Part shown: in pieces, positions 41,953 through 51,053 of the stretch
How the letters are laid out: each line of letters opens with the position of its first letter
How positions within the stretch are numbered: the stretch's first letter is position 1
Source: Bacilli bacterium
GTDB lineage: Bacteria; Bacillota_I; Bacilli_A; RF39; UBA660
Assembly (NCBI GenBank): GCA_051872635.1
Contig: JBJEEA010000042.1
Span: 24,822 to 88,821 of the forward strand
Direction of reading: 5' to 3'
DNA: 64,000 nucleotides
Position numbers and translations under genes: made by a program
Notes under the pieces: model-generated
The model's database searches: none
Told to the model about the DNA's origin: nothing
The model's input: the letters and a program-made list of their open reading frames with translations, nothing else

Positions 41953-42627
41953 CTATGCTGAGAATGTAGCAGATACTTGACCGCCAGCAGCGTTCATAGT
42001 AACAGTGCCACTGTATGTACCAGTTTCACTAGTATCTCCAGCTTCGTTCTGAGAAGATTCAGTATTAGTTAAATATACTAGTAAGTAATATGTAACTGGA
42101 GTATTAGCTGTTAATGATGCATTTTTATGCATATCATCAGGTGTAGCTAAATCTAAATTACCTGTGCTTACAATGTTAGTTGCTGAAGTTTCTGTTCCTG
42201 TGTAAATAGCATAATGCCAGTTAGTTTTAACTTTTGCATCTACTGTTAAAGTTTCAAGTCTAACGCTTGCATTAGCAACGGTTTGAGTAGATTTTGCCTC
42301 TATTTTGTATAGATGGCAACCAGTATAACCATTAGAAGCACAGTTTGCTTTTACAGCATTATTAACAGTATCAAGTGTACCATCAATATTAGCTGGTACT
42401 AAATCTATGCTAGCAACTCCGTCTTCTGGTGTTTTGTTAACTCTTGTTACAGTTACACTAAGTGCAGTTGCAAGATCATTATTTGTACCACCAGTAACAG
42501 TATCACCAGTAGCAGTAGCAGCAGCACTAAAGTATGCAAATGTTGCACCAATAATAGCTACTACCAATGTAGCAACACCTATTACAGCGTAAAATACGCC
42601 AGGTCCCTTTCTCTTTTCATCATCCAT
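41953..42627 (-). CDS. secreted protein paralogue 3 with a SipW-cognate (TasA/CalY-type) signal-peptide motif
   Basis: MDDEKRKGPGVFYAVIGVATLVVAIIGATFAYFSAAATATGD. Start chosen after the AAAGGAGG SD; the track uses a TTG at 42636. Paralogous to the next two genes. Confidence 0.65.
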   Translation of the reverse strand: MDDEKRKGPGVFYAVIGVATLVVAIIGATFAYFSAAATATGDTVTGGTNNDLATALSVTVTRVNKTPEDGVASIDLVPANIDGTLDTVNNAVKANCASNGYTGCHLYKIEAKSTQTVANASVRLETLTVDAKVKTNWHYAIYTGTETSATNIVSTGNLDLATPDDMHKNASLTANTPVTYYLLVYLTNTESSQNEAGDTSETGTYSGTVTMNAAGGQVSATFSA

Positions 42628-42728
42628 TATTTTCAATCCTCCTTTACAATAATAATTGTAACAAATATTGTATTAAAATGCAATACTTTTTTTATCTTTA
42701 TGGAAAAAATTTAATGATAAATTTTTAC

Positions 42729-42757
42729 AAAAAAAATGAAGAGAGCACGGAGCTCTC
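42729..42757 (-). terminator. rho-independent terminator after paralogue 2
   Basis: On the minus strand, GAGAGC-TCCGT-GCTCTC is followed by TTCATTTTTTTT. Confidence 0.65.
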
Positions 42758-42775
42758 AATTAATTAATATTTATT

Positions 42776-43501
42776 TTAGGCACTTGCTGAAAATGAAGCA
42801 ACTACTTTTCCCCCTAATACATCCATACTAATTGTGCCATTATATGTTCCAGTACCACTATTTAAATTTGTGGTATCTTCTGGATTTTGAACTTGATCTT
42901 TGTTAGCTAAATAAATTAATAAGTAATAATAAACTGGATTATTAGCAGTTAGTGATGAATTATTATGAATGTCAAAGCCGGTTTTGCCTTCACCGGTATA
43001 TGTTGTAGCAAAAGTAGCAAAATCTCCTAGGCCACCATCTACTATTGATGTGGCATTATAAGAAGTACCATCATTAGTATAAATAGCATATTTCCAACTA
43101 GCTGTATCAGTAGCATCAGTAGATAATGTTGTAAGTCTGACACTGGCATTACTAATATCTTGAGTTGATTTAGCAGTTATTTTGTATAGATGACATCCAG
43201 TATATCCATTAGCAACACATTTTTGGTCAATTGCTGTATTGATACCATCTACAGTGGCTGTCATATCGGTAGGGACTAAATTATCACTGTTTGCTCCAGT
43301 TTCATCGAATATAACTTTTTCAACATTTAATGAAAGCGCGCTTGATAAGTTATTCTCTGTCTGCCCACTAATTTCATCTCCATTAGCAGTAGCGGATGCA
43401 CTAAAATATGCAAATGTTGCACCAATTATAGCCACTATTAATGTAGCAACGCCTATTATTGCATACAAAGTATTAGGTTTATTTCTGTTTTCTTCTTTCA
43501 T
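42776..43501 (-). CDS. secreted protein paralogue 2 with a SipW-cognate-type signal-peptide motif
   Basis: MKEENRNKPNTLYAIIGVATLIVAIIGATFAYFSASATANGD. AAAGGAGG SD upstream; the track ORF extends to 43534. Confidence 0.65.
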   Translation of the reverse strand: MKEENRNKPNTLYAIIGVATLIVAIIGATFAYFSASATANGDEISGQTENNLSSALSLNVEKVIFDETGANSDNLVPTDMTATVDGINTAIDQKCVANGYTGCHLYKITAKSTQDISNASVRLTTLSTDATDTASWKYAIYTNDGTSYNATSIVDGGLGDFATFATTYTGEGKTGFDIHNNSSLTANNPVYYYLLIYLANKDQVQNPEDTTNLNSGTGTYNGTISMDVLGGKVVASFSASA

Positions 43502-43569
43502 TATTTTAAATCCTCCTTTATTTGATTTTAACAAAAATTATTGATAATTACAATATGATGCTTATATAA

Positions 43570-44187
43570 TTATGCATTAAAAGTTGCCGTAACTTGTGAA
43601 CCAGTGGATGCTGAAACAGTTATTACTCCACTAAAAGAAGCTTTATCAGTGGTATTTTGGGATTCTTGAGTTTCATTTATATAAATCATTATATAAAATT
43701 TTGAAGTTTGACCTGCCACTAAAATGATATTAGATGATACATCAGTATCCGTACTATCATGTACCGATAAAACAGTAGTAGCATTACTCATGGAAGCCCA
43801 TTTTAGATTAGTTACTGTTTCTTTATTTAAAGCTATACTTATGTTAATATTAGTATCATCACTACCTGTATTAGCAGTAGTTATTTCATAAATTTGACAT
43901 ACAGTATTTCCATTGGAATCAATACAGTTCGAAGAAGCTGCTTGAGGTAATTGACTAGTGGTTCCACTTTTAGAACCATCAAGTATTGGTACTAATGATC
44001 CTGTAGATGGGCTAATCATCTTTACTGATAATTCCAAGTTTATATCTAATGCTTCACCATTAATTCCATCAGTGGAAGCTTCAGCACTAAAATAGGCATA
44101 AGTAGATCCAACTATTGAAATAATGAAAATGAAAACACCAATTATAGCGTAAATAAGTCCAGGACTTTTTTTCCTATTTTCTTCCAC
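43570..44187 (-). CDS. secreted protein paralogue 1 with a SipW-cognate-type signal-peptide motif
   Basis: GTG start after an AAAGGAG SD. MEENRKKSPGLIYAIIGVFIFIISIVGSTYAYFSAEASTDG. Shares the C-x6-7-C loop and the C-terminal ...VSA(T/S)F(S/N)A end with paralogues 2 and 3. Confidence 0.65.
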   Translation of the reverse strand: MEENRKKSPGLIYAIIGVFIFIISIVGSTYAYFSAEASTDGINGEALDINLELSVKMISPSTGSLVPILDGSKSGTTSQLPQAASSNCIDSNGNTVCQIYEITTANTGSDDTNINISIALNKETVTNLKWASMSNATTVLSVHDSTDTDVSSNIILVAGQTSKFYIMIYINETQESQNTTDKASFSGVITVSASTGSQVTATFNA

Positions 44188-49270: not shown

Positions 49271-50012
49271 TTAGACTAAAATCATAAACTTTATTTCGAT
49301 ATAAAATTTTAATTCCTTTGTAAATTTTTTCATCAACAACAGTTTTTACTTTATTATCAATATAATTGTAATTTATATTTTTACTTGGAACAAGTATAGT
49401 TATGGTAGGATTATTAAGTTCAATAAGTCTATTTAAATAATCAATAAAATCTTCCATATTAAACTTATTACTAGATAAAAATATTTCATATACCTTGTAT
49501 TCTTTTTCACTTAAAAATTTTTTTAAATATTTAGTTTTCTCTTCTGGCAGTAATGTTTCTATTCTATAAATTTCCTCAGGAGTAAATTTTTTTCTTAAAT
49601 TAAGGCAAAAATCATAATTATTATTATCTTTTACATTTTTTAAAAAATCTTTTATTAGTCCTTCGTAATCAATAATAAATCTTTCTTCTATCTTTTTATT
49701 TATATCAAAAATATTTTTATCGAGATAATTAGTTTCAGTAAGTAAATCTATTATACTGCTATCAAAGTCATAATTAGACTTTGTTTCTGATAATTCATTT
49801 TCTTTTAATCCACTTTTCCTTTTTTCTAATTCTTGATCTAGATCTTTTAATTTTTTTTCTTTTTCATCAATTAAATAATCATACTCTTGTAGTTTATCAA
49901 CAAAATACGACTTGGATTTATCATCAATTGTCTTAACGGTATTTTTTAATATTAAGCTCATTGCCAAAACAAGAAGTATTATAACTATTAATGACAAGAC
50001 AAATAATGGCAT
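49254..50012 (-). CDS. single-pass membrane protein with a coiled coil, a candidate b-like peripheral-stalk subunit with an extra C-terminal domain
   Basis: N-terminal TM helix (MPLFVLSLIVIILLVLAMSLIL), then a charged helical region (EKEKKLKDLDQELEKRKSG). It sits between the c-like and alpha-like genes, where atpF and atpH normally lie. Confidence 0.5.
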   Translation of the reverse strand: MPLFVLSLIVIILLVLAMSLILKNTVKTIDDKSKSYFVDKLQEYDYLIDEKEKKLKDLDQELEKRKSGLKENELSETKSNYDFDSSIIDLLTETNYLDKNIFDINKKIEERFIIDYEGLIKDFLKNVKDNNNYDFCLNLRKKFTPEEIYRIETLLPEEKTKYLKKFLSEKEYKVYEIFLSSNKFNMEDFIDYLNRLIELNNPTITILVPSKNINYNYIDNKVKTVVDEKIYKGIKILYRNKVYDFSLNEGNV

Positions 50013-50014
50013 AA

Positions 50015-50260
50015 TTATCCAACTAATGGATTAAAGAATAGCAATAAGAAACAAAATGCAAATAAAAACAATAAGAAGATAGCAAATATTATTAATATCG
50101 TCATAATGGAATGAACAACATCATTTTTAGTTTCAGGATTTCTACCAACGGCTTCGGCAACTCTTCCTCCTAAAAGGCCCACCCCAAGTCCTAGTCCTAA
50201 AAAGGCTAGTCCTACCATAATTCCTATTGCAACTGCAGTTGCAGATAAAATACTTTCCAT
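50015..50260 (-). CDS. F-type ATPase c-subunit-like proteolipid (81 aa) lacking the helix-2 carboxylate
   Basis: Helix 1 and loop [33 protein letters not shown] resemble AtpE (GxGxGxG ... RQPE). Helix 2 ([25 protein letters not shown]) contains no Asp or Glu. Confidence 0.7.
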
Positions 50261-50272
50261 AAAAGTTCCTCC

Positions 50273-51007
50273 TTAAATTTTTCCTATTTCTTTATTTATC
50301 GTCGGTGTTATCTTTTCTTCAGCAATATGATAGCAAATATCATTTATTTCAAATAAATTAACTGAATAGTATATTGTGTTGTTATCAATATATATATTTA
50401 TAATATCAGGTAGTTTTTCTCTGATTCTGATAATGTATTTTTCTCTGTCATTATTGAATTCGCTACCAGTAAGTTCCTTATCGCTTACTGCGTCTACTAT
50501 AATTCTTTCAGTGTCAGTTAATTTTATATAATCATCAAAAATTTCTGTAGCTATGTCTTTATAGCTAGTACCTGCGATTTGAAGAAGCTCATCATTATTA
50601 ACTATTCTATTTTCCTTTAAATTAAAATTTAAAGTTAATATTTTGTCATGATTAGGAATAATGTAATTTATTTTTACTGATAAGATATTACCATATATTC
50701 CATAAGTAATATTGGTATCGATAATTTCATGTTTTAAAATTTCATTTTGTTTATTTAAAAAATCATCACTTATTTTTGTATCAATATTATTTAAAAAGAC
50801 TCTGTTACCATTAATGTCTATATAGTAACTAATCTTATTATTTACCAAAGTTAGTTCTTTGGAAAGATTTCCATATTTATGATGGTATGCATATATCCAA
50901 TAGGCAATCATTGATATAGCGATGCAGAATATCATTATAAAGAGCAAAATAATTTTTTTATTATTATTTTTATAAATATTTACTTTATTCTTTTTCTTCA
51001 CAGTCAC
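50273..51007 (-). CDS. N-terminally anchored protein of unknown function, first gene of the F1-like ATPase operon
   Basis: GTG start. A basic N-terminus is followed by one TM helix (IILLFIMIFCIAISMIAYWIYAY) and an extracytoplasmic domain of about 195 aa. Confidence 0.5.
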   Translation of the reverse strand: MTVKKKNKVNIYKNNNKKIILLFIMIFCIAISMIAYWIYAYHHKYGNLSKELTLVNNKISYYIDINGNRVFLNNIDTKISDDFLNKQNEILKHEIIDTNITYGIYGNILSVKINYIIPNHDKILTLNFNLKENRIVNNDELLQIAGTSYKDIATEIFDDYIKLTDTERIIVDAVSDKELTGSEFNNDREKYIIRIREKLPDIINIYIDNNTIYYSVNLFEINDICYHIAEEKITPTINKEIGKI

Positions 51008-51024
51008 ACTTTCCTACTGTATAC

Positions 51025-51053
51025 AGTATATCATTTTAATATTTATAAGTCAA
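51025..51053 (-). promoter_or_regulatory. strong SigA-type promoter with an extended -10, driving the F1-like ATPase operon
   Basis: On the minus strand, TTGACT (51048-51053), a 17 nt spacer ending TGA, then TATACT (51025-51030). It lies 18 nt upstream of the first gene's start. Confidence 0.6.

Follow-up and report, generated by a model that had tools for sequence, protein, structure and literature searches.

A non-canonical family of F-type ATPase gene clusters that lacks the ion-binding carboxylate in subunit c and lies beside surface-protein genes in gut and rumen Firmicutes

A 64-kb stretch of DNA with a G+C content of ~27%, from a record titled 'MAG: Bacilli bacterium' (MAG, metagenome-assembled genome) and referred to here as the window, carries an F-type ATPase-like gene cluster on its minus strand between positions 41953 and 51007. 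Twelve open reading frames (ORFs) make up the cluster. Nine of them are closely packed, and behind them come three paralogues that encode secreted proteins (P1–P3). In transcriptional order, the nine genes encode a single-pass membrane protein (g1), a c-like, a b-like, an alpha-like, a beta-like and an epsilon-like subunit, a polytopic membrane protein (T), a gamma-like subunit and a coiled-coil protein (g9). The cluster proteins carry the NCBI annotation 'F0F1 ATP synthase' subunits. A preliminary description of this DNA had read the locus as a non-canonical F1-like ATPase operon coupled to secreted paralogues that were putative fibre or surface subunits, and the positions and common strand that it gave for the twelve ORFs are all borne out. 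As set out below, the cluster very probably belongs to a distinct, non-canonical F-type family for which the ion-coupled mechanism of canonical enzymes is out of reach.

The genes are separated by very short junctions, whose lengths were computed on the longest ORFs. Gaps of 12 and 2 nucleotides (nt) follow g1 and the c gene, respectively. Overlaps of 8–23 nt had been described from the b-like gene to the coiled-coil gene. This range holds for five junctions, namely b/alpha (17 nt), alpha/beta (23 nt), beta/epsilon (8 nt), epsilon/T (8 nt) and T/gamma (20 nt), and for gamma/g9 it holds from the first ATG of g9 (8 nt) but not on the longest ORF (47 nt). The paralogues follow after gaps of 38 nt (g9 to P1), 35 nt (P1 to P2) and 139 nt (P2 to P3). 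A hairpin scan places the sole intergenic terminator-like site with a T-run in the cluster between P2 and P3 (42741–42757, minus strand), in agreement with the earlier statement that no terminator precedes P1 and P2. Upstream of g1, a sigma-70-like promoter candidate (51025–51053, minus strand) combines TTGACT and TATACT at a 17-nt spacing with a TG extension. The site proposed previously as the single promoter is thus present, but promoter-like matches are no commoner in this AT-rich window than in shuffled sequence (88 found, 85 expected), so that it stands as a plausible candidate. That g1 is the first gene of the cluster follows from its relatives, which differ in their upstream neighbour.

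The alpha-like subunit (448 amino acids (aa); 47924–49270, minus strand, as for all genes of the cluster) and the beta-like catalytic subunit (452 aa; 46588–47946) both match PF00006, with 230 and 222 bits, and contain the Walker A motifs GDKKTGKT and GGAGVGKT, respectively. In beta, the catalytic GERSREG motif and an EELSEED loop of the DELSEED type are intact, as is the Walker A motif, and the protein aligns over its full length with the Fusobacterium F1 beta subunit (385 bits; 377 bits for Bacillus PS3). The best match of alpha in the Protein Data Bank (PDB) is 1sky_B of Bacillus PS3 (287 bits), with residues 13–426 aligned on residues 13–427 of 502. Its N-terminal region is collinear with canonical alpha from residue 13 onwards, and its C-terminal domain is ~55–75 residues shorter. 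Scores are lower against the G1-ATPase of Mycoplasma mobile (PDB 9io5), at 293 versus 385 bits for beta and 246 versus 287 bits for alpha. The gamma-like subunit (264 aa; 45049–45843), a predicted rotor shaft that defines the family, matches PF00231 with 85 bits. Judged from their sequences, genuine homology to F-type subunits holds for alpha, beta, gamma and c, and these four of the earlier subunit calls are upheld by Pfam, while the b-like and epsilon-like calls come from position, architecture and weak in-register matches. In one subclade of relatives (L045, L046, L051, L052, L054, L058 and L062; L numbers designate individual loci), alpha carries a C-terminal extension of 160–650 aa; the tail read in L051 (6727–9999) is highly acidic, repetitive and rich in E, V, T and P, and is probably disordered.

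Family membership was assessed with the curated equivalog cut-offs of NCBIfam (release of June 2026), and alpha, beta, gamma and c of the window fall under every family cut-off. Against the canonical models, alpha scores 365.1 on atpA (TIGR00962; cut-off 484.45) and 410 on PRK13343 (cut-off 554), beta scores 458.6 on atpD (TIGR01039; cut-off 462.85) and gamma scores 59.8 on TIGR01146 (cut-off 194). Against the alt_F1F0 models of the N-ATPase, the scores are 344.4 for alpha (cut-off 750.5), 404.9 for beta (cut-off 752), 21 for gamma (cut-off 282) and 16.6 for c (cut-off 131). The models for the M. mobile Type 2 enzyme give 369.5 for alpha (MMOB1660; cut-off 600) and 364 for beta (MMOB1670; cut-off 850), and those for the mycoplasma Type 3 enzyme give 310.5 for alpha (MSC_0619; cut-off 520) and 413.3 for beta (MSC_0618; cut-off 570). 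NCBIfam thus holds dedicated models for the mycoplasma families and none that captures the present one. Distant members behave similarly: their alpha, gamma and c subunits are likewise below the cut-offs, and beta lies just under in L044 and just over in L078 (466.2).

The most telling departure from canonical enzymes is found in the membrane. The c-like subunit (81 aa; 50015–50260) is a two-helix hairpin that matches PF00137 with 33.3 bits and stays below the cut-offs of all NCBIfam c models. To our knowledge, every ion-translocating c-ring has a Glu or Asp at the ion-binding position in the middle of the second transmembrane (TM) helix. In all 53 distinct c sequences of the family, this position, placed by hand alignment to c of Bacillus PS3, is occupied by A, T, S or V. 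The RNPE polar loop, which serves gamma/epsilon docking, is kept, and a C-terminal FFNPL motif is also conserved. Between the window and seven relatives, the farthest of which is from Lachnospiraceae, c is 59–85% identical, as against 22–53% for the b-like protein and 21–38% for T. Speculatively, the extreme conservation of c, its extended extracellular end (FFNPL) included, would fit a ring with many fixed protein contacts.

No a subunit (PF00119) was detected by Pfam or NCBIfam in any gene of the cluster, and no separate delta gene is present in it. The b-like protein (252 aa; 49254–50012) begins with a TM helix, has a coiled coil and ends in a globular domain that is conserved; it shows no significant match to PDB sequences. 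Its last 29 residues align in register, weakly, with the C terminus of Escherichia coli delta (E-value of 0.017), and 3 of 21 members match the Pfam OSCP family (PF00213), also weakly (best E-value of 0.031), so that a delta-like domain may be fused to its C terminus. T (171 aa; 45824–46339) is predicted to have four to five TM helices and is a poorly conserved but constant companion of the core, found in 77 loci. It was considered as an a subunit or AtpI and set aside, having no Pfam, NCBIfam or PDB hit, an hhalign E-value of 0.63 against E. coli a and no conserved residue. Its alignment contains no invariant or nearly invariant column, from which it follows that T lacks the essential Arg of a subunits. 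T is a candidate for the membrane part of the stator.

The epsilon-like protein (87 aa; 46332–46595) was identified by its position directly after beta, its size and a weak in-register match. Its length is that of the epsilon beta-sandwich domain alone, without the C-terminal helices, and it is conserved in 76 loci. A weak in-register hhalign match links it to residues 3–46 of PS3 epsilon (E-value of 0.0099). A Pfam search with 23 members returned a single hit (E-value of 0.17), a profile search of the PDB found no match, and an AlphaFold2 (AF2) model from the single sequence was uninformative (predicted local distance difference test (pLDDT) value of 46.6). Neither T, g1 nor g9 has detectable relatives outside the present family in Pfam or NCBIfam, or, for T, in the PDB, and g1, the b-like protein, the epsilon-like protein, T and g9 gave no NCBIfam hit to mycoplasma accessory families at E≤0.1.

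The cluster is not confined to the window. A gamma-seeded scan of one genome per GTDB species (185,579 genomes) found the family gamma in 222 species genomes, and 257 representatives at 50% clustering were found at E≤1e-3 among 1.84 billion proteins. Full-length family gammas measure ~250–270 aa, and gammas of canonical size (275–290 aa) appear no stronger than ~E 1e-17. The best 80 loci were examined; together with four more, they make up the 84 loci analysed. The hosts are gut or rumen MAGs (human, rabbit, chicken, goat and deer) of Bacilli/'Tenericutes' type and Lachnospiraceae, labelled Bacilli, 'Tenericutes', CAG:321, Ca. Faecenecus, Ca. Pelethosoma and Lachnospiraceae, with one cultured carrier, Lachnospiraceae bacterium AM93-12TA (L078). 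Six loci (L008, L025, L029, L031, L050 and L056) bear the labels Paludibacteraceae, Muribaculaceae, Oribacterium or Ignavibacteriales, with gammas 53–78% identical to that of the window; these labels most likely reflect mis-binning or mislabelling, not the true distribution.

Iterative ORF searches show a core of seven genes (c, b-like, alpha, beta, epsilon-like, T and gamma), each present in 74–83 of the 84 loci, so that the ATPase core is conserved in synteny across the loci analysed. Two gene orders occur. Order I, which includes the window, is c, b, alpha, beta, epsilon, T, gamma; order II is x~1740, x~470, c, b, alpha, gamma, beta, epsilon, T, x~240, where the x genes encode surface proteins named after their approximate lengths. 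When a tree of gamma sequences is rooted with the canonical gammas closest to them, the family is monophyletic and order I forms one clade inside a paraphyletic order II. The displaced gamma, taken earlier as a non-canonical trait, is indeed found in the window, but it is a later, derived rearrangement of a single clade, since order I nests within the canonical-like order II; the ancestral order c-b-alpha-gamma-beta-epsilon is itself canonical-like. The family looks like a canonical atp operon from which a and delta have been removed and to which T has been added.

This ancestral order, identical to that of the atp operon, is one of the points that would agree with a divergent ion-translocating F-type ATPase, possibly the organism's only one, in which T would be an unrecognisable a subunit and the coupling site would be formed by the conserved acidic residue and the His where c TM2 begins (described below). 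A beta subunit about 4 bits under the atpD cut-off in the window and just above it in L078, the NCBI names of the proteins, and the fact that no canonical operon has been demonstrated elsewhere in these genomes (the window and its flanks were searched) point in the same direction. Set against this, none of the 53 c sequences has a membrane-embedded carboxylate, and T has neither an invariant residue, hence no essential Arg, nor profile similarity to a. A housekeeping enzyme would also hardly be expected in just 222 of 185,579 species genomes, in two classes and beside large surface proteins, and Lachnospiraceae generally have ordinary F- or V-type ATPases of their own. We regard an ion-coupled enzyme as quite unlikely. 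The view that this is not a housekeeping atp operon, voiced already in the preliminary description, is upheld by the lack of an a subunit in the cluster, the sub-equivalog scores and the carboxylate-free c.

Conservation across genera likewise bears on whether the ATPase-like genes are a decaying duplicate whose surface-protein neighbours are unrelated to them. The accessory content differs among clades, and the cluster is fragmented in one complete 1.46-Mb chromosome (L059, CP091726.1), where short ORFs (among them b58, b67, A307 and B212) stand in place of the full genes and the flanking P genes are intact. This fragmentation resembles a frameshift sequencing error, and it probably stems from long-read assembly, not from pseudogenisation. 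Intact catalytic motifs, the very high conservation of c, overlapping reading frames kept across genera and retention of the core in nearly all loci all speak against decay, and coincidental adjacency is barely credible as an explanation.

Most members carry anchored surface proteins beside the core. The x240, x470 and x1740 families (~240, ~470 and ~1,740 aa) were found in 43 loci, which include both gene orders, and x1740 is a relative of x470. Proteins of all three families are anchored by one N-terminal TM helix and expose a large ectodomain. In x1740, three to six fn3-type L-x-P-x-T-x-Y motifs are found, versus 0.34 in shuffled sequences. Pfam searches with the three families gave a sub-threshold fn3 hit (x1740) and a faint Flp1-like N-terminal hit only. 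The window's subclade (L001–L022) lacks x1740 and x470 and has g1 and g9. The g1 protein (244 aa; 50273–51007), found in 20 loci, is specific to this subclade, has a TM helix at about residues 15–42 and an ectodomain of ~200 aa, and occupies the position held by x240 in other members; an hhalign comparison of g1 with x240 detected no homology (probability of 25%). The g9 protein (289 aa, or ~276 aa from the ATG at 45056; 44226–45095) is a predicted cytoplasmic coiled-coil protein with no family hit. It is specific to one clade, and sister lineages have remnants of 54–73 aa after gamma.

The three paralogues downstream of g9 encode secreted or anchored proteins of 205 aa (P1; 43570–44187), 252 aa on the longest ORF with a likely start at the ATG at 43501 (P2; 42776–43534) and 227 aa (P3; 41953–42636), the last lying past the terminator-like site and having its own strong ribosome-binding site, AAAGGAGGA. 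Their N-terminal 35 residues are near-invariant (MEENRKG-hydrophobic-GATFAYFSA), and beyond them the proteins are ~31% identical and share two invariant Cys. The earlier designation as TasA/SipW-type proteins holds for the signal: on TIGR04088 (cut-off 19), P2 scores 19.0, exactly at the cut-off, P1 13.3 and P3 14.3, and one P homologue bears a SipW-cognate name in NCBI. It does not hold for the mature domain. No Pfam Peptidase_M73/TasA domain was hit by P1–P3, and an AF2 model built on a 33-sequence alignment (pLDDT value of 81.6, with the core above 90) shows an all-beta, Ig-like sandwich whose N-terminal strand region is of lower confidence. Foldseek comparison of this model with the PDB returned generic Ig/fn3-like domains (TM-scores of 0.26–0.43) and no TasA entry among the 50 matches listed, and the candidate TasA-like assignment was set aside on this ground.

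No sipW gene lies within the 64-kb window. Among relatives, a gene for a SipW-class signal peptidase I (TIGR02228; 91–104 bits, cut-off 51.85) directly adjoins the P genes in L041 and L022, and in L009 it lies close by. A second small secreted family of ~200 aa, with a related N-terminal motif (..GLTVGYAAYSSTL..), occurs in L009 (13190–13783) and L008 (9842–10444). Its gene is flanked by the P genes on one side and by that of a 379-aa protein containing a SipW-like peptidase domain on the other, which suggests that these organisms have a wider range of SipW-type substrates.

Linkage of the P genes to the ATPase is real but clade-limited. Of the 34 order-I loci with enough flank, 23 have P genes no farther than 3 kb downstream of gamma and 26 have them anywhere in the locus, as against none of the 36 order-II loci, where no P gene is found within 10 kb. 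The coupling of ATPase and secreted paralogues that had been proposed is accordingly seen in the window's clade and not in the other one, and the wider partners of the family are x240, x470 and x1740. These distributions bear directly on the hypothesis of the preliminary description, namely a dedicated export or assembly machine for P. This would be a new kind of fibre or pilus assembly system, whose rotating c-ring would extract the conserved N-terminal helices from the membrane and polymerise them. The contrast between a near-invariant N terminus and a divergent mature domain favours such a machine, and a lower-confidence N-terminal strand in the model is as expected for a donor strand. The short, terminator-free g9–P1 and P1–P2 gaps, the proximity of P to gamma in most loci of the clade and a tight one-strand cluster in L022 (c...gamma-g9-P x5-sipW) also favour it. 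Against it stand the ancestral-order loci, in which the ATPase core is intact in the absence of P, and 8 of the 34 loci of the window's own clade, whose fetched locus is devoid of P. Modules of P and sipW are also found apart from the ATPase, and the generic Ig-like fold gave no TasA or pilin match among those listed. Moreover, in Bacillus subtilis, SipW substrates such as TasA need no ATPase. A dedicated P-assembly machine is on these grounds rather unlikely, and P1–P3 are better regarded as proteins that the motor serves, or as neighbours under shared regulation, than as universal components.

The host appears to have a cell wall, as had been supposed. The window encodes a PcsB-type peptidoglycan hydrolase, and in relatives a LysM protein adjoins the cluster. 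In the region 28552–33510, a gene at 30513–32144 encodes a SpaA-type pilin or adhesin with two prealbumin-like SpaA domains and a thioester (TED) domain, beside small ORFs at 29879–30526 that possibly include a sortase; this locus indicates a sortase-assembled pilus and a cell wall. The hydrolase, the SpaA/thioester pilin and the LysM protein of relatives together make it very probable that the organism is walled.

Compared with canonical F1Fo (atpIBEFHAGDC), the family shares homologous alpha, beta, gamma and c subunits, intact catalytic motifs, best PDB matches to the Fusobacterium and Bacillus PS3 F1, the ancestral gene order and a single-TM coiled-coil stalk. It differs in having no a subunit, no separate delta and no ion-binding carboxylate in c, in an epsilon of ~85 aa and a shortened alpha C-terminal domain, in the additional four- to five-TM protein and the sub-cut-off scores, and in its linkage to anchored surface proteins. 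The N-ATPase (atpDCQRBEFAG) is an accessory F-type operon, as the present one would be, and shares with it a patchy distribution and the lack of a separate delta gene. Unlike the present family, the N-ATPase keeps an a subunit, a Na+- or H+-binding c, AtpQ and AtpR, in the order beta-epsilon-Q-R-a-c-b-alpha-gamma. As for the secreted paralogues, they resemble the TasA/CalY-type substrates of tapA-sipW-tasA in a signal of the G-x-T-F-A-Y-F-S type and in the SipW-class gene that adjoins them in some relatives, and differ in giving no Peptidase_M73/TasA domain hit, in a predicted fold of generic Ig/fn3 type and in the lack of sipW in the window.

The closest functional parallels are the F1-like ATPases of mycoplasmas. 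The Type 2 enzyme drives gliding of M. mobile and has been modelled as transmitting force through the membrane, and the Type 3 enzyme is required for MIB-MIP antibody processing and presumed to pass force across the membrane (PMC12994834, PMC3369863). The Type 3 F1-like X0 (MSC_0618-0624 / MMCAP2_0575-0581) resembles the present family in combining alpha, beta, gamma and epsilon with non-canonical membrane proteins and in its genetic linkage to surface proteins of host-associated bacteria. However, it has no c and no b-like protein, its alpha lacks the N-terminal helix, its 12-TM, 19-kDa cytoplasmic and 87-kDa membrane proteins have no homologue in the present cluster, and its gene order (12TM-cyt-gamma-epsilon-X-alpha-beta) is unlike either order found here. 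The Type 2 G1-ATPase (MMOB1610-1670) is similar in being an F1-like motor proposed to drive large surface proteins, and alpha of the window scores about equally on the MMOB1660 and atpA models. It differs in its accessory proteins and in an N-terminal dimerisation domain that is absent from the present beta, since the match covers profile positions 244–683 of 705, and the present hosts are walled. Membership in Type 2 or Type 3 thus fails on model scores, on accessory proteins and on gene order. In contrast to both mycoplasma types, the present family retains c, a b-like stalk and the N-terminal region of alpha. The parallel drawn in the preliminary description stands as a functional analogy and not as membership, because alpha and beta score higher against canonical F1 than against the G1-ATPase. 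Its statement that no equivalent was known outside mycoplasmas agrees with the literature searched, in which F1-like ATPases occur only in mycoplasma papers and a search for RF39 with F-type ATPase gave nothing relevant.

With motor and ring kept, proton-conducting parts lost and surface-protein genes adjoining, the family probably performs mechanical work at the cell surface. It would have been derived from a canonical bacterial atp operon. ATP hydrolysis in alpha3beta3 would turn gamma, epsilon and the c-ring against a stator of the b-like protein and T, and torque or conformational cycling would reach the anchored surface proteins (x240 or g1, x470 and x1740), which might be moved, reset, extruded or assembled outside the membrane. 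Such a motor would neither pump ions nor synthesise ATP, and P1–P3 would be SipW-processed surface proteins that it serves or with which it is co-regulated. We lean slightly towards this full reading as a rotary mechanical actuator that is driven by ATP without ion coupling and has surface proteins as its targets. A bolder version, in which the family is a new class of surface machine whose c-ring has become a purely mechanical rotor driving the movement, extension and retraction, or release of large wall-spanning adhesins or fibres in walled gut Firmicutes, and which is perhaps ancestral to the mycoplasma F1-like motors, is tentative and for now doubtful.

Several observations weigh against a mechanical actuator. 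Assembly of the subunits, their rotation and their contact with surface proteins are predictions from gene content. An ion site of an unconventional kind is conceivable in principle at the cytoplasmic start of c TM2 (DVVHS), where an acidic residue, Asp or Glu, is invariant and a His is mostly conserved. The delta-like domain of the b-like protein and the identity of epsilon are each weakly supported, the latter by position, size and one match. The accessory set varies by clade, with no single universal surface partner; P and sipW modules apart from the ATPase are seen in L009/L015, and in L041 the P genes begin 300 nt after gamma. In addition, no canonical atp or ntp operon was found in the 64-kb window or in ~10 kb past its first and ~4 kb past its last gene, which was the range searched; these flanks were taken from shorter contigs of other assemblies with identical terminal genes. 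The window and the fetched flanks also hold no second copy of alpha, beta or c.

What is new here is the carboxylate-free c, the conserved non-canonical family and the linkage to surface proteins in walled Firmicutes, F-type rotary ATPases themselves being already known. F1-like ATPases with roles other than ion coupling have so far been described, in the literature searched, in mycoplasmas only, and with the present family such repurposing would reach Firmicutes of the gut and rumen, in more than 200 species; the chance that the family represents a surface machine of a new kind is substantial. Since the carrier lineages are close relatives of Mollicutes, it is also relevant to how the mycoplasma Type 2 and Type 3 enzymes arose, for which an explanation is lacking. 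The family amounts to a natural experiment in which the full rotor, including the c-ring, was kept while the ion-binding site and the a subunit were lost, so that the question of what use an ion-free rotary motor has in a membrane becomes testable, and the cultured Lachnospiraceae isolate among the carriers makes genetics conceivable. Because MAG annotations give these genes the name 'F0F1 ATP synthase', an ATP synthase may be wrongly assigned to RF39-like or 'Tenericutes' gut bacteria when their metabolism is reconstructed.

Other genes lie around the cluster. The product of the gene just upstream (51124–52389) is 421 aa long and comprises a signal or TM region, a long low-complexity linker of poly-Asn/Ser and, at the C terminus, a GDSL/SGNH hydrolase domain, for which the Pfam hits are sub-threshold; this gene is not conserved beside the ATPase in relatives. 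Farther along, an IS30-like transposase gene (HTH_38 and rve domains; 57044–58180) adjoins two YhcG/DUF1016 PDDEXK-nuclease genes within 58996–60788, one full-length (58996–59877) and the other consisting of the N-terminal domain alone (60219–60788), an arrangement that suggests duplication or disruption. Beyond the low-coordinate end of the window, the contig of another assembly that contains the window's first gene (L085; 9381–12012) encodes an AbiEi/AbiEii toxin–antitoxin pair and a ThsB-TIR (Thoeris-like) protein, which looks like a small defence island.

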